24,000 nucleotides of DNA, taken from positions 372,306-396,305 of the forward strand of contig NZ_BAABIE010000001.1 of the NCBI RefSeq assembly GCF_039542465.1, read 5' to 3'. Both the position numbers and the translations under genes were made by a program. Origin of the DNA: Gordonia alkaliphila. Lineage in GTDB: Bacteria; Actinomycetota; Actinomycetes; Mycobacteriales; Mycobacteriaceae. This document shows positions 10,377 to 23,538 of this stretch, piece by piece. Under the pieces are notes generated by a model. The model made no database searches, was not told the origin of the DNA, and was given only the letters and a program-made list of their open reading frames with translations. Every line of letters begins with the position of its first letter. Positions within the stretch are counted from its first letter, which is position 1.

Positions 10377-11225
10377 GTGACTGGAGCACTCGTCTTAGCC
10401 GGTACGCCGATGGGACAGCCCGGCGACGCCTCCCCGCGACTGCGGGAGGCCTTGGCGTCCGCGGACATCGTGGCCGCCGAGGACACGCGGCGGGCCCGCG
10501 GCTTGGCGTCGTCGTTGGACGTGACGATCGGCGGAAAGCTGGTCAGCTACTACGACCACGTCGAAGCCCAGCGCGCGCCGCAATTGGTGGAGGCGATCGC
10601 CGACGGCGCCACCGTTCTGCTGATCACCGATGCGGGCATGCCGTCGGTGAGCGACCCCGGTTATCGACTCGTCGCCGCCTGCGCGGCCGCCGACCTGCGC
10701 GTGACCTGTCTGCCCGGCCCGTCCGCGGTGACCACCGCGCTGGCGCTGTCGGCGCTGCCTTCGGAGCGGTTCTGCTTCGACGGCTTCGCTCCGCGCAAGC
10801 CCGGCGCTCGCCACGACTGGCTGGCGTCGCTGCGCACCGAGCCGCGCACCGTGGTCTTCTTCGAATCACCGCACCGGCTGGCCCAGACCTTGGCCGACGC
10901 CGCGCAGGTGCTGGGCGACGACCGGTCGGCGGCGGTGTGCCGCGAACTGACCAAGACCTACGAAGAGGTCAAGCGCGGCGGTCTCGGCGAGCTGGCTCGG
11001 TGGGCCGCCGACGGCGTCAAGGGCGAGATCACGGTGGTCGTCGCCGGCGCTTCGGCGATCGACGACGAAGCGGACCTCGAGTCGGTGGTGGCCGCGGCCG
11101 AGAGGCTGGCCGACGCTGGCAGTCGTCTCAAGGATGCGTGCGAGCAGGCGGCGGCGGGGACGCCGTTCAGTCGCCGCGAGGTCTACGAAGCGGTACTGGC
11201 CGCCCGCCGCGCGGCCGACAACTGA
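10377..11225 (+). CDS. rsmI: 16S rRNA (cytidine1402-2'-O)-methyltransferase RsmI (Rv1003-like)
   Basis: 282-aa ORF with a GTG start after GAGGAAGG. Tetrapyrrole-methylase-fold motifs are present: LAGTPMGQPGD, AAEDTR, ITDAGMPSVSDPG, FFESPHR. Confidence 0.9.
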   Translation: MTGALVLAGTPMGQPGDASPRLREALASADIVAAEDTRRARGLASSLDVTIGGKLVSYYDHVEAQRAPQLVEAIADGATVLLITDAGMPSVSDPGYRLVAACAAADLRVTCLPGPSAVTTALALSALPSERFCFDGFAPRKPGARHDWLASLRTEPRTVVFFESPHRLAQTLADAAQVLGDDRSAAVCRELTKTYEEVKRGGLGELARWAADGVKGEITVVVAGASAIDDEADLESVVAAAERLADAGSRLKDACEQAAAGTPFSRREVYEAVLAARRAADN

Positions 11226-11271: not shown

Positions 11272-12640
11272 CTAGCCTGGATCTTTCATCGGTGAATTCG
11301 AATCGCCAGGCCTAAAGCATGAAGAAAGGTGCTCTCACCTGCGATAATCGTTCTTGCGACAGCACGATTACGTCAGAGCGAAGGAGCACCTTTCTGGTGA
11401 ACAACTCTACCGTGTTCTATCCACACATCCACGCCACCGGCGACGGCGAGAACCTCGTGTCCCACGCCGGAACTGTCCTGTTGACCCGGACCGTCGAGGC
11501 CAGCAGCCTGGCAGCCGAGGTATCGACCGCACTGGCGCCGTGGCGCACACCGTTGGCGACGCATGATCCGGGCAAGATCATCGCCGACCTCGCCGTCGCG
11601 TTGGTCGCCGGCGGCGACTGTCTCGCCGACATCGCGACCATCCGCGAACGCCCCGATACCTTCGGCCACGTCGCCTCGGACCCGACGGTGTCCCGCCTGA
11701 TCTCCACCCTGGCCAAGTCGCCGATCCAGGCGCTGTCGGCGATCGCCGCCGCGCGAGCGGCGACCCGGGCACGCGTGTGGTCGCTGGCCGGCACCGCCGC
11801 GCCGAACCATGCCATCTCAGCGAAGAAGCCACTGGTCATCGACCTCGACGCGACCCTGGTCACCGCGCACTCCGACAAGCAATCGGCTGCAGGAAATTAC
11901 AAGGGAGGCTACGGATTCCATCCGATGACCGCGTTCATCGACCACGGGCCCGGCGGCGCCGGGGAAGCCGGAACGATCCTGCTACGGCCAGGCAATGCCC
12001 GTGGTCGTGCGGCGAGAGAAACCGCATCCGGGTGCGCAACTGCGGATCACCGACCGCAACGGGTGGCGGCTGACCGCATTCGCTACGAACACCAAGCTCG
12101 GGCAGCTCGCGGATCTGGAACTGCGGCATCGCCGCCGTGCGCGGTGCGAGGATCGGATCCGGCAGAGCAAGGATTGTGGCCTGCTGAATCTGCCGCTGTT
12201 CTCGTTCGCGCAGAACCAGGTATGGACTGCGATCGTCGCGCTGGCATTCGACCTGAACGCGTGGATGCAGATGCTGGCGTTGACCAGCACGAACGCCCGA
12301 ACCTGGGAGTTGAAGACATTGCGTCTGCGGTTGTTCGCGATCGCGGCCAGGATCGCTCGCCACGCCCGTCAACGACGCCTGCGGTTCGATGCCCACGCCA
12401 AGCACACCAGGCTGCTCATCGCTGGGCTTCATCGGCTCGACGCATTCACCAACACCAGCTGACCACCAGTTCCCGCTGGTATCCGAACGACCTGAAAGAC
12501 ACCCTCCGGGCCCGTGAAACCCGGCCGCGATCCGGCGGCATCCGGCCAGCCTGTCGTACCCGACCTGCATAATCTGCTCCGCCGCAATCAATCCGAACCG
12601 CTCAGGCCGGGAGAAAACCACGACGAAAGATTGAGGCTAG
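11272..12640 (+). mobile_element. IS1380-family insertion sequence, internally deleted
   Basis: Terminal inverted repeats CTAGCCTGGATCTTTCATCG (11272-11291) and the reverse complement of 12621-12640 (CTAGCCTCAATCTTTCGTCG) match at 17 of 20 positions. They enclose the split transposase. The element is about 1.37 kb, shorter than typical IS1380 members. Confidence 0.8.
11397..12462 (+). pseudogene. IS1380-family transposase, broken by an out-of-frame internal deletion near 11997-12003
   Basis: The N-terminal part runs from the GTG at 11397 (after AAGGAG): VNNSTVFYPHIHATGDGENLVSHAG...ILLRPGNA. The C-terminal part is in another frame (track ORF 11995..12462): PVVVRREKPHPGAQLRITD...LELRHRRRARCEDRIRQSKD. 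About 100+ central codons expected between GNA and the RREKPHPGAQL block are missing. Confidence 0.8.
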
Positions 12641-12858
12641 GAGAACGTGTGGCCTGAGAATATGGCGAAACTTCCCCGTCGCATTTGTCGAATCATCTCC
12701 GTGGGTGTCCAATATGCCTCGGGGGAAGAATCCTCCCACTATCGGCAACTCGAAGCCGAGACCACTCCACAGGGAGTATCGGCAGGGTTGGGGGAAGCGT
12801 TACATCGGGGGATTGTGGTCCTTCGGTGTCCGCATGGACTACAAGGGGGCTCGTCTCG

Positions 12859-13539
12859 ATGAGGCGTATCACCAGACTTCTACTGCTCACCGTTCTCGCT
12901 GCGTTCACGTTGGCGGGATCATTGCTCGCCGGACCGGCGGACGCGAAGACCCATCACACGCGTGAAGGCGTCGACATCACGCTGACCGCCTCGAAGCTCA
13001 AGGCGAAGAAGATTCCGGCACTGGACGCCTCGCCGCTGTCGGGCGAAGCGCTGCTGTCCTCGGACGTGCACGCAGCACTCAAGGGCATCGACGGCAAGAC
13101 CGTCCGTGCAACGGTCGAGGTCGGCTACAAGATCGGCTACCCGGTCTCGGTCGCGCCCTCGGGCGTGAATGTCGCCGCACACACGCCCGAGCTGAAGCTG
13201 ACCGGCGGCCTCAACGCCAAGGTCGCACCCGAGGTCACCATCTCCGGCAGCGGCGGCGGCGCCAAGCTCGGCGAGATCGGCGCAGAGCTCGGTGCCGAAG
13301 CGACCGTTATCCCGGCCGCGGACCTCGAGTTCGAGGTCGGCGCGGGCAAGATCACCACCGTCACACTCGCCGACATCGCGCTGACCCAGCCCGTCGCCGA
13401 CATCGTCCTGTCCGGTGTCGAGCTGAACGTGTCCAACGCTCTCGGACCGATCTCGGTGCGACCGTTCGCCAAGATTAGCGTCACGACTGATACCGGTGTG
13501 TACGTGTACTACGACCACGGCCCCAACAGCCGCATCTGA
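12859..13539 (+). CDS. MspA-family mycomembrane porin (copy 1), Sec signal peptide
   Basis: Track ORF 12685..13539, trimmed to the ATG at 12859 after AAGGGGG. Signal peptide MRRITRLLLLTVLAAFTLAGSLLAGPADA|K. Blocks TVEVGYKIGYPVSV, VAPEVTISGSGGG and ISVRPFAKISVTTDTGVYVYY align to M. smegmatis MspA blocks LELGYQIGFPWSL, PGVSISADLGNG and LLRPFARLIASTGDSVTTY. Confidence 0.75.
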   Translation: MRRITRLLLLTVLAAFTLAGSLLAGPADAKTHHTREGVDITLTASKLKAKKIPALDASPLSGEALLSSDVHAALKGIDGKTVRATVEVGYKIGYPVSVAPSGVNVAAHTPELKLTGGLNAKVAPEVTISGSGGGAKLGEIGAELGAEATVIPAADLEFEVGAGKITTVTLADIALTQPVADIVLSGVELNVSNALGPISVRPFAKISVTTDTGVYVYYDHGPNSRI

Positions 13540-13553
13540 GTAGGGGATCCGCG

Positions 13554-14714
13554 ATGTATGTACATTTCGATCGTGCTAGAAGAGAGCACGGACTACTAGT
13601 TGGTGCGCTCGCAGGAATCGCGACGATGACTGTCGCCTTCATACTTGTGCTTACGCTCGCCCCATCGCCGGCGTCGGCTGAAACACCTGCCCAACGTTGC
13701 AAACGGGAGACAGCGGCATATAACGCGGGGTGGGCGGCTATAGGAAGGAAGCCACCTGCTCCGTACAAATGTGGCGGCAGCAATAAACCGCCACCCACCC
13801 TATCTCCAGCCGAACCTGGCGACCATGGCGAAGAAACTGAGGAAAAATCGCCCCCTGAAAAGGGAACGCCAGACGGCGCCGACACCGGTCGTAGTGGAGG
13901 CCCAAGCCTCAAACCGCCCACCGAGCGCAACGACAATGCCAGCGGCGTCGACCCAAATCAGCCGAGCGTAGCACCTTCTCCCGGAATGAACCGGCCCGAA
14001 AGGCGAGAAGTTCAAGCGTGTACTCAATACCGTTTCGACACGGGGCGTTGTCTCCCCTTTAACTCTCCCGCCAAGCATGCTGCCGACCGGGTGATCGCTA
14101 CGATCACGCAAGCGATTCGCCAGGGCTACGAAATCCAGGTTCGGCGTTACATCGATCGTACAAGAGCTGTGTGGCCATCGTCCCGCCTTGCCGAGATTGA
14201 GGCCGCTGTCGTACGGGCAAGGGCCGCGCGTGACCTCGGTGTCACTGGCCAGTATGATGGATCGGTCAAAAGCCGCAATAGGTGGGTCTATGATCAGCTT
14301 CACGATGTTGGCTACTGCAACAACTCGGGGAATTGTAGTCTGGAGTTCAAGCTTCGAGTCAATTACGAAATCTACCTGAATGTTGCTACTAAGAAGCCGG
14401 AGGCGCTACTTCGCGGACAGATATCACGCCCAGACGGGGGACAGTTCCGCATCACGAATCATCAATGCGTGGTAATGAAAGACGACCTATTCGATAACGC
14501 GGTCGGGCGCTATAATGAGTGTGGAATCACGGAATACAAAACTTCTAGCTACCAAATACTCGACGGATCGTCGACCACTATGACGCGGGGGAAGTTTCAC
14601 TACTTCCAGGCGACTGTTTTTATCGCTGCGCCAGAGCAGGCAGTAGGGCCGCAACCGGCACCGCGATCACCTCGATGGTTCACCGCAGACAACGGTGATC
14701 AGTGGTTCTACTAG
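13554..14714 (+). CDS. Secreted polymorphic-toxin-like protein 1: conserved N-terminal module, Pro-rich linker, unique Cys-rich C-terminal domain of unknown fold
   Basis: 386-aa ORF starting 14 nt after the porin stop, with SD AGGGGA. Signal peptide ...LAPSPASA|ETPAQRCKRETAAYN. Residues about 43-135 are shared with the 20364 product (ETPAxRCKRETAAYN, PYxCGG, GPSLxPxTERNxxAxGVD). The C-terminal 250 aa or so are unrelated to the paralog and markedly lower in G+C. Confidence 0.7.
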   Translation: MYVHFDRARREHGLLVGALAGIATMTVAFILVLTLAPSPASAETPAQRCKRETAAYNAGWAAIGRKPPAPYKCGGSNKPPPTLSPAEPGDHGEETEEKSPPEKGTPDGADTGRSGGPSLKPPTERNDNASGVDPNQPSVAPSPGMNRPERREVQACTQYRFDTGRCLPFNSPAKHAADRVIATITQAIRQGYEIQVRRYIDRTRAVWPSSRLAEIEAAVVRARAARDLGVTGQYDGSVKSRNRWVYDQLHDVGYCNNSGNCSLEFKLRVNYEIYLNVATKKPEALLRGQISRPDGGQFRITNHQCVVMKDDLFDNAVGRYNECGITEYKTSSYQILDGSSTTMTRGKFHYFQATVFIAAPEQAVGPQPAPRSPRWFTADNGDQWFY

Positions 14715-14734
14715 ATTAACTAGGAGAGTTAACC

Positions 14735-15016
14735 GTGGGATTAGTGCCTAGCGATGATGAGCTACGGACGCTTGAGCGAAGGGGCCTTCTATCGGCGGTG
14801 CTCTTTTACGCCGAAAACTTCGGGGCGGTTAGCTCTACCGTTCTTGATGCAAGTAGCCGAGTCGAGGCGGTTGAGAAACTGAAGGAAATGTATGGCTTCA
14901 GCGTTGAACAGGCGGATCTAATTCTCGCCACGCAGTTGCAAACGATTCTTCCCGATCGGATCTCGGCAATCAGAGAGGAGCTGGAGTGGATTGATTTAAA
15001 TTTGAATCGACCGTAA
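14735..15016 (+). CDS. Small cytoplasmic protein, candidate cognate immunity/partner of toxin-like protein 1
   Basis: 93-aa ORF with a GTG start 8 nt after AGGAGAG and 20 nt after the upstream stop. It has no signal peptide and low G+C like the upstream C-terminal domain. It contains the helix motif FSVEQADLILATQLQTILPDRISAIREEL. Confidence 0.6.
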   Translation: MGLVPSDDELRTLERRGLLSAVLFYAENFGAVSSTVLDASSRVEAVEKLKEMYGFSVEQADLILATQLQTILPDRISAIREELEWIDLNLNRP

Positions 15017-15560: not shown

Positions 15561-17013
15561 GGCTCTTCGTTTTTCAGAGTGCGTTGACCCTTTCGGCGAG
15601 CTGACCGGAGTGCAGTAGGGACCGCAAGATGTAGTGGTCGAGGTTGCGGAAGCCTTGGGCGATGCCGCGGAGGTGTTCGAGGCGTCCGTTGATGGCTTCG
15701 ACGGGTCCGTTGGAGACGCCGGTGTCGAAGTAGGCCAGGATGTCGGCGCGCCTGTTCCACAGGCTTCGTCCGAGTTGGGCCAGCTCTTGCAGGCCTGTCG
15801 GCAGTCCGGTGCGGATCCGGTGCAGGACCTTGTACATGAGTTTCTTCCCCTCGCGGCGCTGCGGGTGTTCGTAGGCGGCGATCAGCTGCTGGTAGATCTG
15901 GTGGGTGATCTCGACAGCGACATGGTCGTCGTGACTGGTCAGTGACTCGAATAGGCGGATCTTCTGCTTGTCGGTGAGGAGTTCGGTGCGGGTATGCAGG
16001 ATCCGGCGGATCTTGTAGAGCGGGTCGTCTTTGCGCCCCCGGTGCCCGCATACTTGTTGCTGGATCCGTTGCCGGCACTGGTCGAGTTTGCTCGCGGCCA
16101 GGTGTACGACGTGGAACGGGTCCATCACGACCCGGGCGTCGGGGAGTTCTTCGGTGGTGGCGCTCTTGTAGCCGGTGAATCCGTCCATCGCCACGACCTT
16201 GATCCGATCCCGGAACCGTTGGTCTCGGGCGGCCATCCACTGTTTGAGGACGTGTTTGGATCGTCCGCCGATCATGTCGAGCAGGCGTGCGGGGCCGGTC
16301 CCGTCGATGACCGGGGTCAGATCGATCAGGACGGTGACGAAACTCGGGTCTCCTTGTCCGCGAACATGTTTCCATTTGTGTTCGTCCACGCCGAGGCAGC
16401 GGACACCGTCGAGGTGGTCGCCGTTGTAGACCAGGGTGCGAGCGGCCTCTGTGGCGATGGTATTGACCGTTCTCCAGGCGATGCCGAGGTTGGCAGCCAC
16501 GGCGGCCACGCTCATCTTGTCGACCACGATGCGCTGCAGAATCCAGCGCTGCGTCCTGGTCGTGACCACTGCTCGCGCCCTGGCGATGTGGTCGATCCTC
16601 GCGCGGAAGACCGACCTGGAGCAGTCGCTGGTGTGGCACACGTACCGCGGAACCGCCACGTGCAGGAGGACTGGATGGCCGGCGGCAGGAGTGTCGGTCA
16701 GGATCCGTGCGACCCGATCGCGTGGTTGACCTGCAATGTTGCAGTTCGGGCATCGTCGATCGGGGTCGAGGACCTCGCAGAAAAATATGGGTCCGGTCGT
16801 CGGCGCCGACGGCCGCGCCGGTGATCGTGACGCCCAACTCGACGGTTCGGCAGATCGTGTCGGCAACATCGGAAGTAAGCTCAGTCATGGGTCCTGTGGT
16901 GTGCGTCGAGGGTGTGTAGGAACTTCCATGATCACACCCAGGGCCCGCCTACATGTTGTGGTCGCCCACGCTCGTCCCGAACCTCACCTATGCACTCTCA
17001 GATACGAAGAGAT
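15561..17013 (-). mobile_element. ISL3-family insertion sequence, copy 1 (full length)
   Basis: The end at 15561 starts GGCTCTTCGTTTTTCAGAGTGCG. The reverse complement of 16991-17013 reads ATCTCTTCGTATCTGAGAGTGCA, matching 17 of 21 in the core. The right boundary is approximate (17011-17013). No target duplication was seen. Confidence 0.8.
15574..16888 (-). pseudogene. ISL3-family transposase, split by a 1-nt frameshift in an A5/T5 run (16781-16785)
   Basis: The N-terminus MTELTSDVADTICRTVELGVTITGAAVGADDRTHIF (ATG at 16888) continues in another frame as CEVLDPDRRCPNCN...VPRYVCHTSDCSRSVF. The remainder is the 431-aa track ORF 15574..16869 (MDGFTGYKSA..., FDTGVSNGPVEAINGRLEHLRG). Confidence 0.8.
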
Positions 17014-17231: not shown

Positions 17232-17398
17232 GGTTGGTCCTGTCTTTCCACCGCAGGGCTGCCGTCTGTCGTTGGGGCCAGGGTTCAGCGACGCAGCGTC
17301 CATCGGTTCTCGCCACGAGCGCTTCGGAGGAGTCTCTGCCGGCGGCGGTGCCGCCGGTGCTCAAAGTGGCGATTGCCCGCTTGCGTAGGGTTCTGGCC

Positions 17399-18127
17399 AT
17401 GGACGAAGGGCTGTGGCGCGAGCACCTGAAGGCGTACCGGAGACGAATGCTGTGGGCCCCTCTGGGCCTGAGCGCGTTGGGCTGTGCCTTCATCGCCGTC
17501 TCGGCCTACGACACCGACTGGGAGTTCAGCTTCCTCGGATTCGCGACCGGCGCGCTCCTCCTGGTAGTCGCGCTCACCCCGGTGACGGTCCGACTGCTCC
17601 CCATCGGCCAGCCAAGGGTCGAGAGGACCGAGACAACGCTGTCGCTCGTAGCCTCTCCACGAGGCCGTGTCGCGATTATCACAATTCCGATCGCGGTGGC
17701 GATGGCCGTCGCCGCCTTCGCGGCACTGACGCTGGACCACTGGCGGAAGCCGTTGATCGGGATCGTCGGGATACCGCTGGCCATCGTTCTGGCACTCGTC
17801 TCATTCGCGGAGTCGCGGTATGAGGTAACCGACAGGTGCTTCGCCCATGTCGTCGACTACGGCGGGCTGGTGTGGGTCCGCGAAGTAGATCGACCAACGA
17901 TTGCCTGGCTCGATTCCCGTTTGATCCTCTACCTGGCAGGCGATGTCACGGTGACCCGCCGCACTCGCGGCAGCAGCACCAGCCGGTCGAAGGAAGGCAG
18001 CGTCCTGTTCAGACTCAGCCCCCTGCCCGATCGGTTGGCCACCGAGTTCGCCGCCGAGGTCGTGCGGCGAACCGGCATCGAGATCAGCTACGGCGTGATG
18101 CCGACCGAGATGTGGGATATGCGATAG
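17399..18127 (+). CDS. Membrane protein of unknown function (about 4 TM helices plus a soluble C-terminal domain)
   Basis: Track ORF 17234..18127, trimmed to MDEGLWREHL at 17399. Coding-like GC3 and hydrophobic segments. No family recognised. Confidence 0.55.
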   Translation: MDEGLWREHLKAYRRRMLWAPLGLSALGCAFIAVSAYDTDWEFSFLGFATGALLLVVALTPVTVRLLPIGQPRVERTETTLSLVASPRGRVAIITIPIAVAMAVAAFAALTLDHWRKPLIGIVGIPLAIVLALVSFAESRYEVTDRCFAHVVDYGGLVWVREVDRPTIAWLDSRLILYLAGDVTVTRRTRGSSTSRSKEGSVLFRLSPLPDRLATEFAAEVVRRTGIEISYGVMPTEMWDMR

Positions 18128-18135
18128 AGCCCAGG

Positions 18136-18270
18136 TTAGACTTCGTCTGAGACGGTGACGCCTACCAGGCGAGCACACCTCGATGGCACCGAACCAGATC
18201 CCGAGGAGACGGCTGTTGCGGGCTGAGGCGCTCGCAGGCTATCGCAAGCGTTCACGGTGATGGTTGTCAT
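18136..18270 (-). pseudogene. Second decayed ArdA-like 5' segment (also readable as a 44-aa ORF)
   Basis: Positions 18179-18218 align with 17124-17163 at 31 of 40 nt by hand alignment. In the alternative frame this segment encodes NSRLLGIWFGAIE, compared with NGRLVGIWVDAVD in the 17231 fragment. An in-frame stop lies upstream in that frame. The 44-aa ORF with ATG at 18270 follows AAAGGA. Confidence 0.3.
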
Positions 18271-18280
18271 GGCGGTCCTT

Positions 18281-18661
18281 TCAGACGGGAAGCAGGTCAG
18301 CGATGCGGTCAATGTCGATGACGCTCTCGGGATCGGGATCGCTGGGCCCCAGGAAGCGCTGCTCGACGTCGAGGCCAAGCAATCCCCGGCCGGCAGCGAA
18401 AGAGACTTCCTGGTCAAGTCCGAGGTTGCGGCCGTAGGCCGGATCGAGGCCGAGAATCGTGTACAAAGCTCGTGCTGCGCCGAAGACGGGATCGGCGCAG
18501 ATGGTGATCTCCGCCCAGCCGGCCCAGCGCTCGAAGCCGTACTTATCGCCGCCGCACGGGCCGGGAACATAGACAACTCGGTCGGCGCCCTCGGCGCGAG
18601 CAGCCTCGGCCGCGTCGATGCGCCAGATGACTGGCCAATGGCGTTGGAATATCTCGGCCAT
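18281..18661 (-). CDS. Hypothetical protein (126 aa)
   Basis: Track ORF 18281..18784, trimmed to MAEIFQRHWPV at 18661. It starts 11 nt after the upstream stop and has GC3-rich codons. No recognisable domain. Confidence 0.5.
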   Translation of the reverse strand: MAEIFQRHWPVIWRIDAAEAARAEGADRVVYVPGPCGGDKYGFERWAGWAEITICADPVFGAARALYTILGLDPAYGRNLGLDQEVSFAAGRGLLGLDVEQRFLGPSDPDPESVIDIDRIADLLPV

Positions 18662-18672
18662 CTCGGTTATTC

Positions 18673-19038
18673 TCACGGCAGCGCCTCCAATAGCGGCTCG
18701 ACGGCGAGAACCTCGCCGGTAGTCAGTCGGTGCTCCTCGATCGCCGCTTCGATCTGGCAAGGATTGGCCAGGTGCGACCAGCACCGCGGACCGGCCACGC
18801 CGTCGGTGAGGACGATGCGGGTTCCGTCGGTCAGGTCGATGCCGACCATCGACAGGGCCGCTCGGGCAGCGTCCTGGGCCATGCCGGGCGAGTACAGATA
18901 ATCCGGGTCAGCCGGGGCCAGGTCGTGGACCCGATTGTACCGGCGGGCGACGTCGGCACGGTCCAGAGTTCTGGCCCGGTCCGGGACGAGGCCGCGGTGG
19001 ACCAGACGTGCGACCCAAGGGTCGGTGATGGCGGTCAT
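18673..19038 (-). CDS. Hypothetical protein (121 aa)
   Basis: Track ORF with ATG preceded by GAGG, 4 nt after the upstream stop. No recognisable domain. Confidence 0.5.
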   Translation of the reverse strand: MTAITDPWVARLVHRGLVPDRARTLDRADVARRYNRVHDLAPADPDYLYSPGMAQDAARAALSMVGIDLTDGTRIVLTDGVAGPRCWSHLANPCQIEAAIEEHRLTTGEVLAVEPLLEALP

Positions 19039-19042
19039 CGCC

Positions 19043-19300
19043 TCAGCCCTCCGCGTTCGCGGTCAGGCCGACGAGGTGCGGGTATTCGGCTGGCGCGGTG
19101 AGGATCTCGACCTCGTAGATTGCATGAACCTCTGCGTACTGCGGGCCCTCGCCGGTTAACGGGATGAGGGCGCCCTGTGCCCAGTCATCGAGGTCGTGAG
19201 TGGGTGGTGGCGACACCTCGACACCGATGGTGTGGGTGAACACAGCGCCGGTGGCGTAGGAGTTCTCGGTGCGGATGGTGAGCGGGATGGTTGCCGGCAA
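19043..19300 (-). CDS. Hypothetical protein (85 aa), first gene of the small operon
   Basis: Track ORF 19043..19420, trimmed to the in-frame TTG at 19300, 6 nt downstream of a strong AAGGAGG. The upstream part of the track ORF is Arg/Pro-rich and non-coding-like. Confidence 0.45.
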   Translation of the reverse strand: MPATIPLTIRTENSYATGAVFTHTIGVEVSPPPTHDLDDWAQGALIPLTGEGPQYAEVHAIYEVEILTAPAEYPHLVGLTANAEG

Positions 19301-19521
19301 TCTGGGCCTCCTTGATCGAGTCGAGGAAGGTTTGGCGGCGGCTATGCCGCCGGTGCTTCTTGTCTGTGTTCGAGGTCGCGCCGACCTACAAACCCAGCCG
19401 CGAACCCGGGCCCCTGGCACCAGAAGGCGGGCCGCGAGCGCAGCACCGAACCCATGTCAGGCAAGCACCTACCGGACCCGCACAGCGAATCCGAGTCTCG
19501 GCATTTCCCAAGGTCACCACT

Positions 19522-19544
19522 CCGGAAAATTCCGGACCGGAATC
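19522..19544. repeat. CCGGAAaaTTCCGG inverted repeat followed by the 13-nt CCGGACCGGAATC, repeated at 22847-22859
   Basis: Read directly from the sequence. The exact 13-mer occurs at 19532-19544 (about 125 bp upstream of porin 2) and at 22847-22859 (37 bp after the lipoprotein stop). Confidence 0.5.
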
Positions 19545-19667
19545 GTATTTCTTGCTTCTACCTGCAAGTTCGCAAATGCTCTCCAGTACTGGCTGGCCAA
19601 CCGGTTTTAGCGTTCTCGCGGGCTCTCAGTCGGGGGCTCACACACGAACACAACGAAACTCGGAGTG

Positions 19668-20348
19668 ATGATGAGACGAGGTTTCACCCTTCTGCTCGCC
19701 CTGTTGGGCGCGCTATCGATGACCACACTGCTGGCCGGCGGTCCCGCGGAGGCCAAGACGTACAAGACCCGCGAAGGGTTAACGATCGCCCTGACCGCGG
19801 CCCAGCAGTCGGCGCGCGCGGTCCCGCCGCTGGACTCCTCGCCGCTGTCGGGGCAAGCGCTGTTGTCCTCAAATGTGCACGCCAGGATCGGGAACATCGA
19901 CAACAAGATCGTGCGCGCCACGCTCGAGGTCGGCTACAAGATCGGCTATGCGGTATCGGTCGCTCCCGACGGAGTGAAGGTCACCGCCCACACCCCCGAG
20001 TTGAAGCTCACCGGCGGGGTCAACGCCAAGGTCGCCCCGGAAGTCACCATCTCCGGTTCAGGAGGCGGCGCGAAGCTCGGCGACCTCGGAGCCCAAGCGG
20101 GCGTGGAAGCGAATGTGATTCCGTCAGCGGACCTGGAGTTCGAGGTCGGGGCCGGCAAGATCACCACCGTCACCCTGGCCGAGATCGCGTTGACCCAGCC
20201 CGTAGCCGACATCGTCCTGTCCGACGTGGAGCTCAATGCTACCAACGCGCTCGGCCCGATCAGCGTGCGTCCATTCGCTAAAATCTCGGTCACCACCGAT
20301 ACCGGCGTGTACGTGTACTACGCCCACGGCCAGACCAGCCGTCTGTAG
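19668..20348 (+). CDS. MspA-family mycomembrane porin (copy 2), Sec signal peptide
   Basis: The track ORF starts at GTG 19665, with ATGs at 19668 and 19671 after GGAG. Signal peptide ...LLAGGPAEA|K. It is colinear and highly similar to the 12859 product, including TLEVGYKIGYAVSV, VAPEVTISGSGGGAKLG and ISVRPFAKISVTTDTGVYVYY. Confidence 0.75.
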   Translation: MMRRGFTLLLALLGALSMTTLLAGGPAEAKTYKTREGLTIALTAAQQSARAVPPLDSSPLSGQALLSSNVHARIGNIDNKIVRATLEVGYKIGYAVSVAPDGVKVTAHTPELKLTGGVNAKVAPEVTISGSGGGAKLGDLGAQAGVEANVIPSADLEFEVGAGKITTVTLAEIALTQPVADIVLSDVELNATNALGPISVRPFAKISVTTDTGVYVYYAHGQTSRL

Positions 20349-20363
20349 GCGGGGGCTTCACGG

Positions 20364-21533
20364 ATGATAGACAGGAAGATCGATAACAACCGACCGGCGC
20401 GGAAGCGGGCATCCAGCGGGATGGGCGCAAGCGTTGCCGCCCTCGCTGTATCCCTCGTGATGGCGTCATCGCTGCTGTCGGCAAATGCGTCGGCCGAAAC
20501 GCCGGCGGAGCGTTGCAAGAGGGAGACTGCCGCGTACAACTCCGCATGGGCGACGTCTTGGGTGAGAGCTCATCCCGGAACGAAACCGGCTGATGCACCG
20601 CCTCCGCCGGTGCCCTACAGGTGCGGCGGGGGCGGCGGGGGCGGCGGCCAGCCTCCCACGTTTAGCCCGGACGAGCCAGCGCCCCCGAGCTCGACGGCAA
20701 CACCGCCCCCTTCTACCTCCGCTGAGCCGGCAGACGGCAGCAGTGGGCCTTCGCTCCACCCGTCGACAGAGCGCAACGAGCCAGCCAACGGTGTCGACCA
20801 GGACCAGAGTCCTGTCGGGGGCGGGGAAAGAGAAGAGTATCCAGATATTCCCGACGACGAACTCCGGAAGCTGATCAACATATCGGTAAGGAACTTCAAT
20901 ACCTCAATCAGGAAGCTACGTAGCGATCTTCAGACGTTCGCCCGCCAGATGTCCCTTCCCTACTCTGAGGTCCTCTCCAGTGCCGAGCGGAATGCTTTTG
21001 ACGCCGTACAGGTAAGTAATCCCAGCGCCGATTCGACGTGTGGGAAACCTGCGAACCAACCAGTCGGTCAAGCTAGAGGAGAAGGTGACTTCTTCTACTC
21101 GGACTCCTGCTTGGGAGGCTACAACCATGGCCACAATGGGATATTCACCTCCCCGTCAGCTACTATGGAAGCGAGCGACGATCAAGGGGTCCACGACGTT
21201 GAAAACGCGGCCGCTTCCATGCGAGTGAATCCGCAAAAGTACTATGTCAAGTCTGAGAACGCGACGAACCACCAGAAGCACCTAGCGGCAGAATACGCTC
21301 TATCTAAAGACGGTAAGGGGTACAATTCGGCGGGCTTCGCGAACAACAGGAAGGGTGGCCCCGATGTGGGGCATTTCAACTGTTCCCAGTTGGTGTGGGC
21401 AGCCTACTATGAGACTTCGAGAATCGACCTCGATAAGGACTCATATGGATCATGGCTCGGCCGGAACGTGTCCCCCAATCCCGGGGTGTATCCGAAGGAC
21501 CTCACCGGGTCTCCGCTAGTTGTGGCGTACTGA
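20364..21533 (+). CDS. Secreted polymorphic-toxin-like protein 2: conserved N-terminal module, Pro/Gly-rich linker, C-terminal YiiX/YaeF (peptidase C92) permuted papain-like amidase domain
   Basis: 389-aa ORF starting 15 nt after the porin stop. Signal peptide ...SANASA|ETPAERCKRETAAYN. C-terminal motifs GDFFYSD, HGHNGIF and GHFNCSQLVWAAYYE compare with E. coli YiiX GDIIF, YSHTGML and QYCSEVVWKVY. His precedes Cys, which is the circularly permuted order. Confidence 0.7.
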   Translation: MIDRKIDNNRPARKRASSGMGASVAALAVSLVMASSLLSANASAETPAERCKRETAAYNSAWATSWVRAHPGTKPADAPPPPVPYRCGGGGGGGGQPPTFSPDEPAPPSSTATPPPSTSAEPADGSSGPSLHPSTERNEPANGVDQDQSPVGGGEREEYPDIPDDELRKLINISVRNFNTSIRKLRSDLQTFARQMSLPYSEVLSSAERNAFDAVQVSNPSADSTCGKPANQPVGQARGEGDFFYSDSCLGGYNHGHNGIFTSPSATMEASDDQGVHDVENAAASMRVNPQKYYVKSENATNHQKHLAAEYALSKDGKGYNSAGFANNRKGGPDVGHFNCSQLVWAAYYETSRIDLDKDSYGSWLGRNVSPNPGVYPKDLTGSPLVVAY

Positions 21534-22810
21534 TGCGTTTTTGCCGAAGGAGGGGGCGGGGGTCGCCCGTCCGTCTGGTTGTCGGTATCGCGGTGTCGCT
21601 TATGGTGGCCGTCACAGTGTCGTGTTCGGACGACGCTCTGCCGGAGACATCAGTTCTGGGGCCCGAAGTCGATCGAATCCCTGAGCGGGCGTACGCCGCA
21701 GTGATGGTTGCGCCACCGATGTTCGAGTTCTCGTATAACACCGTTCAGGACAATTCCTGGGTGGTCTTCGTCGATCGAGATATGACACCCCTGGGGTACA
21801 TGCACCAGAAGGGGATGTTTCGAAGTCAGATCGCACGGTATCGCGACGGAATCGTCTTTGCGGACCACGAGAGATATTTCGTGACCTCCAAAGCCGGTAC
21901 ACGCGTCGAACCCCACGACGCAGGCGGGATGTCACTGCGTGCGTCAACACCGTACGACCTTCAAACGGAAGGCGCTTTCTTATGGCTTGACGACGGTGTA
22001 GTGGACGGCCAGTATCGAACTACCGCGATCTCGGTATCGTCGGCCGGCTCAGTTTCGATCCGCAAGATCGACGGACGGATCGTTTCTTTCGGCAGATGCA
22101 CCGGTATCCCCTATGCCGTTTTCTTCCGCAGTTTCGGGAGCGCCGGGTCGGACAAGGTCCACGAACTAGTTGAGATCGACATGTCCAAGAACCGACCTGA
22201 TATCCCGAAAGCCCGAGGAATCTTCGACTTCAAGGGCTCCGGTGGCGGGATGCCCTATTCGTGCGACAGTTCAGGACGGGTCTCGACGTACATGTCGGAT
22301 GGCTACGGGGTTTCCGAAGGCCGGCCGATCAAGTCCGGGTTCTGGACGGCGAGCGTCGATGATGGCCGCGCCGAGTGGTCCCCCGTCCCGCGCGAACAGG
22401 CCGAGCGTTCTGCGGAACACGGCGGATTACATACTCAATACCAGGCACCCTTCGGGGCGAAGATCTCATGGCCCAGCCATGACGGCATCCGGTACGTCGA
22501 TACCGACGGACAAGTGTCGGAGATCAGGTTCGGTCAGGATTTTGCCAGCTATTTATTCGCCATCGCTCCGGACATTCAGGATCGTAGGGTCCACGCGATA
22601 GCGGTCGGTTCCGGATCGAACAGTATCGCCTATCTGGAGCGCGTCGAATCGGACGGCTTCATCCTCCTGGGTGACGGCGAGTTTGTTTTCACGGACCTCA
22701 ACTCTCGTGAAGAGAACCGCCGAATACCGACCCCAGAGTGGTTAGCGAACCTTGTCGCATCGGACCCCTTCACGGTCAGCGATATCGCGCTACTGGACGA
22801 TCTCATGTAA
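21533..22810 (+). CDS. Putative exported lipoprotein (425 aa), candidate cognate immunity/partner of toxin-like protein 2
   Basis: Track ORF 21452..22810, trimmed to the ATG at 21533, which overlaps the upstream TGA (TGATG, translational coupling). The N-terminus MRFCRRRGRGSPVRLVVGIAVSLMVAVTVSC has a lipobox-like VSC. The rest is beta-rich with no recognised family and has lower G+C than the core genes. Confidence 0.6.
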   Translation: MRFCRRRGRGSPVRLVVGIAVSLMVAVTVSCSDDALPETSVLGPEVDRIPERAYAAVMVAPPMFEFSYNTVQDNSWVVFVDRDMTPLGYMHQKGMFRSQIARYRDGIVFADHERYFVTSKAGTRVEPHDAGGMSLRASTPYDLQTEGAFLWLDDGVVDGQYRTTAISVSSAGSVSIRKIDGRIVSFGRCTGIPYAVFFRSFGSAGSDKVHELVEIDMSKNRPDIPKARGIFDFKGSGGGMPYSCDSSGRVSTYMSDGYGVSEGRPIKSGFWTASVDDGRAEWSPVPREQAERSAEHGGLHTQYQAPFGAKISWPSHDGIRYVDTDGQVSEIRFGQDFASYLFAIAPDIQDRRVHAIAVGSGSNSIAYLERVESDGFILLGDGEFVFTDLNSREENRRIPTPEWLANLVASDPFTVSDIALLDDLM

Positions 22811-22836
22811 GAGGGTTCCTCGCCGTCATGCGGAGA

Positions 22837-22859
22837 GGTATCGATACCGGACCGGAATC
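22837..22859. repeat. Perfect 12-bp palindrome GGTATCGATACC overlapping the second copy of CCGGACCGGAATC
   Basis: Read directly from the sequence. Palindrome at 22837-22848 and 13-mer at 22847-22859, between the lipoprotein stop and the ISL3 end. Confidence 0.5.
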
Positions 22860-22891
22860 TGGCAATCCGAGAATGTATGAACTACATATCC

Positions 22892-23538
22892 GGCTCTTCG
22901 TTTTTCAGAGTGCGTTGACCCTTTCGGCGAGCTGACCGGAGTGGAGTAGGGACCGCAAGATGTAGTGGTCGAGGTTGCGGAAGCCTTGGGCGATTCCGCG
23001 GAGGTGTTCGAGGCGTCCGTTGATGGCTTCGACGGGTCCGTTGGAGACGCCGGTGTCGAAGTAGGCCAGGATGTCGGCGCGCCGGTTCCATAGGCTTCGT
23101 CCGAGTTGGGCCAGCTCGGCCAGTCCGGCGGGTAGTCCGGTGCGGATACGGCGCAGGATCTTGTACATGAGTTTCTTGCCCTCGCGGCGGTGTCGGTGTT
23201 CGTAGGCGGCGATCAGCTGTTGGTAGATCTGGTGGGTGATCTCGACAGCGACATGGTCGTCGTGACTGGTCAGTGACTCGAACAGGCGGATCTTCTGCTT
23301 GTCGGTGAGGAGTTCGGTGCGGGTATGCAGGATCCGGCGGATCTTGTAGAGCGGGTCGTCTTTGCGCCCCCGGTGCCCGCATACCTGCTGCTGGACCCGT
23401 TGCCGGCACTGGTCGAGTTTGCTCGCGGCCAGGTGTACGACGTGGAACGGATCCATCACCACCCGAGCGGCGGGGAGTTCTTCGGTGGTAGCGCTCTTGT
23501 AGCCGGTGAATCCGTCCATCGCCACGACCTTGATCCGA
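22892..23538 (-). mobile_element. ISL3-family insertion sequence, copy 2, truncated by another IS
   Basis: It begins with the same GGCTCTTCGTTTTTCAGAGTGCG end as copy 1 and stays colinear with 15561-16207 of copy 1 with scattered substitutions. Homology stops abruptly after ...CTTGATCCGA (23538). Confidence 0.8.
22905..23538 (-). pseudogene. ISL3 transposase, C-terminal half only
   Basis: Track ORF 22905..23525 (MAMDGFTGYKSATTEEL...LHSGQLAERVNAL) is nearly identical to the C-terminal half of the copy 1 transposase. The N-terminal half is missing. Confidence 0.8.

Follow-up and report, generated by a model that had tools for sequence, protein, structure and literature searches.

Why would a porin gene stand immediately ahead of the genes for a secreted protein and a lipoprotein, and why would this order be kept while the C-terminal part of the secreted protein is exchanged? 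The question is raised by a 24,000-nucleotide (nt) stretch of the Gordonia alkaliphila genome (NCBI RefSeq assembly GCF_039542465.1, contig NZ_BAABIE010000001.1, positions 372,306 to 396,305 of the forward strand), referred to below in its entirety as the window. It carries a three-gene unit, cassette 2 (19665-22810, + strand), that encodes an MspA-family porin, a secreted protein and a lipoprotein, as well as a sister unit, cassette 1 (12856-15016, + strand), composed of an MspA-family porin, a secreted protein with the same N-terminal module and a partner of 93 amino acids (aa). Our answer, on whose correctness we are evenly divided, is that mycolic-acid actinobacteria possess a polymorphic effector system of which cassette 2 is one unit, with a pore-docked effector, a C-terminal tip that attacks acyl or lipid linkages and a lipoprotein that provides immunity. 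The polymorphic effector-partner part of this answer appears well supported by sequence comparison; that the pore is a dedicated export route is something that we only infer.

An earlier note on this DNA, made from the sequence alone, had already described cassette 2 as a porin, a secreted protein and a coupled lipoprotein, and all three genes proved genuine, with open reading frames (ORFs) in Gordonia alkaliphila where it had placed them. The porin gene (19665..20348, + strand; start GTG at 19665 or ATG at 19668) encodes 227 aa, including a Sec signal at approximately residues 1-30 that ends in AEA. Its assignment to the MspA family held, with a match to Pfam PF09203 at E 6.3e-30 and 104.8 bits (cut-off 22.9) that spans model positions 2-177 of 179. 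The score against the NCBIfam MspA equivalog NF053716 was 28.8 bits, far below the cut-off of 280, so the protein is a member of the MspA family and not an orthologue of M. smegmatis MspA. Its claimed similarity and colinearity to the cassette-1 porin were likewise evident from a gap-free alignment at 73% identity.

The secreted protein (389 aa; 20364-21533, + strand) is 100% identical to Gordonia alkaliphila MUG78_09780 and begins 15 nt past the porin stop, as the earlier note had it, a spacing repeated exactly in cassette 1. A Sec-type signal peptide can be read from the sequence at residues 1-44 (20364..20495, + strand), with predicted cleavage after ASA, and is followed by the conserved N-terminal module at residues 45-87 (20496..20624, + strand; ETPAERCKRET-AYN-AW...PPVPYRC), which contains the invariant C51 and C87. 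In homologues the module always begins right after an AxA signal-peptidase site, and their alignment gives the consensus ETPAERC[KA]RET-AYN-AW ... PPVPY-C, in which the two Cys and about 15 further positions are invariant. The module has no match in Pfam or NCBIfam. It leads into a disordered linker rich in Pro, Ser and Thr, and also in Gly (20625..20828, + strand), that ends in the junction motif GPSLHPSTERNEPANGVDQDQSPVGG, after which similarity to cassette 1 stops; a related motif, [AP]PTx[RK], occurs in 49 of 165 module proteins. Between the two window proteins only residues ~19-151 are shared (BLASTP, 43% identity, E 2e-24), in agreement with the proposal that they have a common N-terminal module and different C-termini. 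The third gene encodes the lipoprotein (425 aa, termed here the lipo2 family; 21533..22810, + strand), which has a lipobox at Cys31, is of YycP type and is predicted to be all-beta. Its ATG at 21533 overlaps the effector TGA at 21531-21533 by 1 nt (TGATG), in keeping with the translational coupling of an exported lipoprotein that had been described.

Polymorphic tips and porin linkage across genomes

A search with the whole secreted protein returned 50 homologues, nearly all from Gordonia, most of which match just the first quarter to third of the query. These 50 module proteins fall into at least 23 C-terminal clusters without detectable mutual similarity. When a profile of the module was compared with 1.84 billion representative sequences, it retrieved 112 clusters (at 50% identity) with E up to 1e-3, the module always lying at approximately residues 15-100 of proteins that range from 103 to 947 aa. 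Few of the tips are recognised by Pfam, the matches being to DUF6973, calpain-like, metallopeptidase-like and, weakly, phospholipase A2 (PLA2) families. The partner ORFs start between -59 and +25 nt from the effector stop and change according to the type of C-terminus. Among them are many with a lipobox or a membrane helix at the N-terminus and some that appear cytoplasmic, and two to three match SMI1_KNR4/SUKH, a common immunity family of polymorphic toxin systems. We judged these data by working criteria of our own for polymorphic toxin-immunity systems: one N-terminal region is indeed joined to many unrelated C-terminal domains, and the downstream gene changes with the C-terminal domain and includes members of known immunity families. 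Single genomes, moreover, hold several diverged copies of the cassette. The view in the earlier note that a duplicated porin and N-terminal module with exchanged C-terminus and partner is the signature of a polymorphic toxin-immunity locus is thus upheld by the number of tips, the partners that track them and the SUKH proteins among those partners.

The same note had staked its reading on porin, toxin and partner being linked in other genomes as well, and they are. A scan of one genome per species yielded 45 module loci (35 in Gordonia, nine in Nocardia and one in Rhodococcus), and in 44 of them the ORF immediately upstream, on the same strand, is of the MspA family, as judged by BLAST and a porin hidden Markov model. 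Even the ten most divergent of these upstream ORFs all match Pfam MspA, at E 1e-36 to 1e-41. The gene order is the same on the plasmids pUSK13_1 and pGKT3, where RefSeq labels the upstream gene 'MspA family porin'; a plasmid collection gave three module matches and one porin match, and the cassette system is mainly chromosomal. In Tsukamurella spumae, an MspA gene is followed by a divergent module (DPAADCQRAW...PVPPVPAGWC) and then by the same tip and lipoprotein as in cassette 2, from which it follows that a strict motif under-counts the family. The arrangement recurs in dozens of independent loci and is therefore not a product of chance.

Two of these loci also reveal shortcomings of the public annotation. 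The 184-aa protein annotated in Tsukamurella spumae (L062, 2470-3555) represents only part of its ORF, which in full encodes a signal peptide, a two-Cys module, a linker and a tip of the same kind (the C92 tip described below). On the Gordonia sp. KTR9 plasmid pGKT3 (L054, 1428-2446), two MspA-family genes are separated by 1.1 kb; the module ORF follows the second, and RefSeq leaves that ORF unannotated over the module. The first MspA gene is followed by just a 65-aa ORF and is possibly a decayed cassette.

In four of the 44 porin-linked loci (L003, L004, L008 and L034), the contig begins within the last 31-33 porin codons, so that only the final ~100 nt of the porin gene are present. Contigs that start in this way indicate that the porin 3' end and the effector 5' end together form a repeat, present in several copies, at which assemblies break, with the consequence that cassette copy numbers in draft genomes are underestimated. 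Such a repeat would also be expected if the linkage were purely genetic, that is, if the porin gene and the N-terminal module formed a conserved flank that supplies a promoter and recombination homology for exchanges of tip and partner, the pore itself playing no part in effector biology. DNA homology between the two window cassettes is restricted to the porin (12927-13532 against 19736-20341, 78% identity by blastn), which suits this explanation, and linkage alone predicts that porin and module will co-vary. We nevertheless consider it quite improbable. The association has been kept across three porin clades that share only 22-26% identity, across four genera and on two plasmids, and a separation of that age would erode an association without function. 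The conserved N-terminal region of the effector could, besides, equally provide recombination homology without a porin.

The three clades into which the cassette porins have deeply diverged co-vary with subtypes of the N-terminal module, and porin and module identities are correlated across 40 loci (Spearman 0.44). Gordonia effusa illustrates this within a single genome: a clade-A porin (L007) accompanies a module of the form CKRET...YKCG, whereas the clade-B porins (L009-L012) accompany CARET...YTCHDP. Co-variation of this kind could also arise in a colicin-like or display arrangement, in which the effector would leave the cell by some other route and its N-terminal module would bind MspA-type pores, either as a tether on the producer or as a receptor or import channel on the target cell, the pore being co-encoded to keep the two matched. 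Cassette porins are 84-91% identical to porin 1 across species, as would suit a shared receptor, and porins of the same clade exist without effectors. Bacteriocin loci, however, do not normally encode the receptor of their target, and the near-obligate adjacency on one strand, with a spacing of 15 nt, points to co-production in one cell; we give this arrangement little credence. Cytoplasmic-looking partners, such as the SUKH proteins and the 93-aa protein of cassette 1, are to be expected for any system that delivers effectors to the cytoplasm and do not separate the models.

The C-terminal tip and its lipoprotein partner

Profile searches, AlphaFold2 and Foldseek together indicate that the tip (residues 156-389; 20829..21530, + strand) consists of a three-helix bundle and a permuted NlpC/P60 domain of YiiX/YycO type. 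The window protein itself matches PF05708 (Peptidase_C92) weakly, at 15.5-17.1 bits against a cut-off of 27 (E 0.006-0.018). Eight of nine close homologues of the tip match this family at E up to 1, the best at 7e-8. A profile built from the nine homologues retrieved 185 proteins, mostly secreted actinobacterial proteins of ~250 aa, among which those annotated with PF05708 were matched at E 1e-26 to 1e-42. Other annotations amongst these matches are 'YiiX/YebB-like NlpC/P60 cysteine hydrolase' and 'YycO', and versions fused to LGFP repeats occur in Corynebacterium and Rhodococcus. The same profile found no match among Protein Data Bank (PDB) sequences, even at E up to 10.

Structure prediction was more informative. 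With an alignment of 95 sequences, AlphaFold2 modelled residues 156-389 at a predicted local distance difference test (pLDDT) score of 93.3, as a three-helix bundle followed by an alpha/beta domain. Searched with Foldseek against solved structures, this model matched both chains of E. coli YiiX (2if6) best (E 1.9e-4, probability 1.00, TM-score 0.41-0.56), followed by the permuted HRASLS2/3 phospholipase-acyltransferases and then by canonical NlpC/P60 peptidases (MepS). His257, Glu269, Tyr320 and Cys340 are invariant or at least 90% conserved across the 95 sequences and are candidate catalytic residues. Their order (His, polar, Tyr, Cys) is circularly permuted and parallels His49, Glu64, Tyr127 and Cys154 of BcPPNE, a member of the permuted NlpC/P60 family in which the roles of these residues have been described (PMC3142127). 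The permuted papain-like fold that the earlier note had proposed, and its choice of Cys340 and His257 for mutation, agree with these results. Its boundaries for the domain (~238-389) were too narrow, since according to the model the folded tip extends over approximately 156-389 and comprises the helical bundle as well as the catalytic domain.

The substrate first suggested for the tip also requires revision. By analogy with the Tae amidases and Tai immunity proteins of type VI secretion systems (T6SS), it had been taken for a peptidoglycan amidase. The core, however, is permuted and clusters with enzymes that bind lipids or acyl groups, for which reason we dropped this reading and regard the analogy as probably wrong. 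YiiX has a hydrophobic S1 pocket with a bound fatty acid, and cleavage of a fatty-acyl amide bond rather than of peptidoglycan has been proposed for it (PMC3142127). Permuted NlpC/P60 enzymes have a hydrophobic acyl pocket, and the characterised members are phospholipases or acyltransferases (PMC3142127, PMC12994826). Among them is the permuted T6SS effector Tox-Act1, identified in a 2026 study as a phospholipase that acts in the periplasm and has a membrane-associated immunity protein (PMC12994826). By analogy with these enzymes, a lipid or acyl substrate is more likely for the tip than peptidoglycan.

The N-terminus of the lipoprotein has a basic n-region and a hydrophobic core ahead of Cys31, a Cys that is aligned in all homologues. 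RefSeq starts the protein at an internal Met (402 aa) and so leaves out the basic n-region and the greater part of the hydrophobic core (21533-21601); the 425-aa start is favoured because homologues conserve the longer N-terminus. A word-based search found only five close relatives. Inspection of the loci showed a homologue directly after the tip in G. effusa (27% identity), Gordonia sp. HNM0687 (27%), a further Gordonia assembly (62%) and Tsukamurella spumae (28%). The C92 tip and a lipo2-type lipoprotein co-occur in every recovered C92-tip locus that has an upstream MspA gene, and the lipo2-like partner stands beside no other C-terminal family in the loci of the genome scan. Where identities were determined for both, in three loci, those of the lipoprotein (27-62%) are lower than those of the whole effector (39-66%).

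This pairing has a counterpart outside the cassettes. Standalone YycO-like genes in Rothia and Glutamicibacter are followed by a gene for a 386-408-aa lipoprotein annotated with PF27482 (Beta-prop_YycP), and hhalign aligned the lipo2 family with the partners from Rothia, Glutamicibacter and Rhodococcus at 95.3% probability (E 2.1e-8, 339 columns). At the level of sequence profiles, the cassette lipoprotein is thus to be regarded as a remote homologue of YycP-type beta-propeller lipoproteins, and tip and partner as a pre-existing YycO/YycP-type two-gene module that the polymorphic system has captured. In Glutamicibacter halophytocola (L060, 935-6750), a standalone pair of this type has a serine recombinase on one side and an ArdA anti-restriction gene on the other, a position suggestive of a mobile element. 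An LGFP-repeat protein with the same C92 tip (L050, 4001-7024) was found among apparent housekeeping genes (a pheA-type prephenate dehydratase (PDT), LytR_cpsA_psr and GT87). The 382-aa lipoprotein encoded after it was considered as a possible lipo2 homologue and rejected, the hhalign probability being 5%; we claim no homology between them.

That YycO-like and YycP-like genes are widespread in actinobacteria without porin or N-terminal module raises the possibility that the products of cassette 2 are housekeeping enzymes of the envelope. The N-terminal module would then be a tag that directs or anchors such enzymes to the cell wall or mycomembrane, the YycP-type protein a regulator or cofactor of the YycO-type enzyme, and the porin co-expressed for envelope maintenance. 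The surroundings of the LGFP-fused version, with its own downstream lipoprotein, fit this picture, and YycO of B. subtilis is listed just as a putative wall hydrolase, its activity not determined (PMC10653849). Set against it are the features of a conflict system rather than of housekeeping: at least 23 unrelated tips on one module with tip-specific partners that include SUKH proteins, an atypical base composition with flanking insertion sequence (IS) elements, multiple diverged copies per genome, and the position of the Glutamicibacter pair between the recombinase and ArdA. On balance, we regard a housekeeping role as unlikely.

Proposed mechanism and setting in the window

Under the polymorphic effector reading, the effector would be exported by Sec, and its N-terminal module, possibly stapled by a disulfide between the two conserved Cys, would dock it, in the mycomembrane, to the MspA-type pore encoded with it. 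This pore would pass or display the linker and tip at the cell surface, where the tip could attack an acyl or lipid linkage in the envelope of a competitor, be it in a phospholipid, a lipoprotein or a mycolate-type lipid; an attack on peptidoglycan would be less likely. In the producer, the YycP-type lipoprotein, tethered to the plasma membrane on its outer side, would bind and block the tip as an immunity protein. More generally, the three MspA-family clades might serve in the mycomembrane as translocons or docking sites dedicated to polymorphic effectors that Sec exports, with the two-Cys module as their recognition tag, a generalisation that we offer tentatively and would not yet call probable.

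Several points weigh against this mechanism. One of the 45 genome loci (L013) has no upstream porin. A scan of metagenomes with the clade-A porin recovered four loci only, a small sample of such porins, and two of them (L056 and L058) lack a downstream effector; on R. jostii pRHL1, an MspA-like gene of more canonical type stands alone; such same-clade and canonical porins without effectors imply that the pore is not exclusively dedicated to this task. The adjacency and co-variation of porin and N-terminal module could come from co-inheritance alone, and the MspA constriction would force the tip to pass unfolded. On the side of the partner, the occurrence of the YycO/YycP pair without porin or module fits a housekeeping pair of enzyme and regulator and makes immunity a putative role for the lipoprotein, which at 425 aa is unusually large for an immunity protein. 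AlphaFold2, given five sequences only, returned an unusable model of the lipoprotein (pLDDT 37, predicted template modelling score (pTM) 0.32) in which the secondary structure is almost all beta; we infer the beta-propeller fold from its sequence relationship to the YycP-type proteins. Toxicity, protection and porin-dependent export are all predictions only.

A gene map of the whole window was drawn from codon-position GC content and Pfam matches. Core genes identified by Pfam (AurF, Na/H exchanger, MFS, Usp, DUF222, PMT and rsmI) extend up to rsmI at 10377-11225, beyond which a DDE_Tnp_1_4 transposase (11319-12572) lies 5' of cassette 1. The cassette-1 porin gene (likely 12856-13539, + strand) matches Pfam MspA at 99.4 bits. 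Its longest ORF has a 57-codon 5' extension (12685-12855) without a counterpart in porin 2 or in homologues, and the true start is probably the Met at 12856. It is followed by the secreted protein (13554-14714, + strand), which has the same module and a C-terminus unrelated to that of cassette 2, and by the 93-aa partner (14735-15016, + strand), which has no signal peptide. This partner shows a weak, far-below-threshold similarity to a segment of DNA gyrase A/ParC (GyrA ~367-438), seen with four related NCBIfam models at E 0.003-0.16. If real, the likeness might be a sign that the immunity protein of cassette 1 works as a decoy and that its tip is directed at a topoisomerase.

Between the cassettes lie an ISL3 transposase (15574-16869, - strand; Pfam DDE_Tnp_ISL3), downstream of cassette 1, and two ORFs of 297 aa (17234-18127, + strand; apparently with several hydrophobic stretches) and 214 aa (18257-18901, + strand), which have a coding-like GC content at third codon positions (GC3) and match no Pfam family above threshold. 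A truncated copy of an ISL3-family transposase (22892-23538, - strand; Pfam DDE_Tnp_ISL3) lies directly 3' of cassette 2 and is 95.5% identical to 15561-16207 over 647 nt (blastn), so that both cassettes are directly followed by minus-strand ISL3 transposase sequence. The stretch from 11.3 to 24 kb looks like an IS-rich island adjoining rsmI. GC3 is 0.88-0.93 in the core genes, 0.85 in the porin and 0.65-0.73 in effector and partner; the lower values of the latter two, together with the flanking IS copies, fit horizontally exchanged modules. A tblastn search of the window with every collected effector and partner brought up no orphan tip and no orphan partner outside the two cassettes. Within 19000-23100, a scan found no promoter-like sites, and terminator-like sites did not rise convincingly above background.

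Comparison with known systems

MspA-family proteins are regarded as nutrient porins, and we know of no settled account of how Sec-exported proteins cross the mycolic-acid outer membrane or reach its surface. The near-obligate coupling of an MspA-type pore to polymorphic effectors provides a concrete hypothesis for such a pore-assisted export or display route. In the open-access full-text literature, we found no paper that links MspA-family genes with polymorphic toxins or immunity proteins, and within that literature the cassette system is an undescribed delivery variant of polymorphic effector systems. A recent paper on MspA treats the family, with more than 3000 homologues, purely as channels (PMC10868439). 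The cassettes add an undescribed trafficking module along with many uncharacterised C-terminal domains and partner families, and they are a candidate competition system in Mycobacteriales outside ESX/type VII secretion. With three small genes, hosts that are not pathogens and natural variants in four genera, they would also make a tractable model.

The closest relatives of the C-terminal half of the cassette are the YycO/YycP pairs (PF05708 and PF27482) of Gram-positive bacteria, of which tip and lipoprotein are profile-level homologues with the same gene order and tight spacing. Unlike the standalone enzymes, to which it is ~30% identical, the window enzyme is fused behind an N-terminal module and linker and is preceded by a porin, and the lipoprotein is related to its counterparts only by profile comparison. 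Seen from the cassettes, the YycO/YycP pair, for which we came across no established function, may consist of a secreted enzyme that hydrolyses acyl or lipid linkages and a lipoprotein that inhibits it.

T6SS Tae amidases of the NlpC/P60 type have the canonical Cys-before-His order, cleave peptidoglycan and are countered by periplasmic Tai immunity proteins. The cassette shares with them a papain-like cysteine enzyme, in the case of the tip presumably also meant for the envelope of a competitor, and an exported partner as putative immunity protein. The tip differs in being permuted (His257 before Cys340) and in that its nearest structures have a hydrophobic acyl pocket (PMC3142127). Closer in this respect are Tox-Act1/TseH (PMC12994826), which likewise have a permuted NlpC/P60 core with conserved His and Cys, act in the envelope (as we predict for the tip), have a membrane-associated partner and belong to polymorphic conflict loci. 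The cassette tip, however, falls in the YiiX/YycO (PF05708) clade, is found in a Sec and porin context rather than with a T6SS, and has a beta-rich lipoprotein of ~400 aa as its partner.

The CpnT-IFT system of M. tuberculosis combines an outer-membrane channel and the C-terminal TNT toxin in one polypeptide, has an immunity factor, and is exported in an ESX-dependent manner. It belongs to the same bacterial order and resembles the cassettes in that a channel of the mycomembrane goes together with a toxin domain at the C-terminus and an immunity gene downstream, roles that are putative in the cassettes. There, by contrast, pore and effector are the products of two genes, the pore being of the MspA family and the effector bearing a classical Sec signal.

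The overall plan of the cassettes mirrors that of CdiB-CdiA-CdiI and two-partner secretion (type Vb). Both have the gene order of pore, exoprotein and partner; in the exoprotein, a Sec signal and a conserved N-terminal region are followed, beyond a junction motif, by a tip that can be exchanged; and the downstream gene is specific to the tip, with several diverged copies of the locus per genome. The parts themselves are different. The cassette pore matches only MspA and not an Omp85/TpsB barrel with POTRA domains, and the effector, whose N-terminus has no Pfam or NCBIfam match, lacks a two-partner secretion (TPS) domain and filamentous haemagglutinin repeats. Cassette effectors are also short (100-950 aa), their hosts have a mycolic-acid outer membrane, and secretion through the cassette pore is a proposal. 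The likeness to type Vb is thus one of organisation only; if the three porin clades do serve as dedicated translocons or docking sites, the cassettes would represent a two-partner secretion system of mycolic-acid bacteria whose parts have no relation to those of type V, and would be the first Sec-coupled route for proteins across the mycomembrane to be defined.

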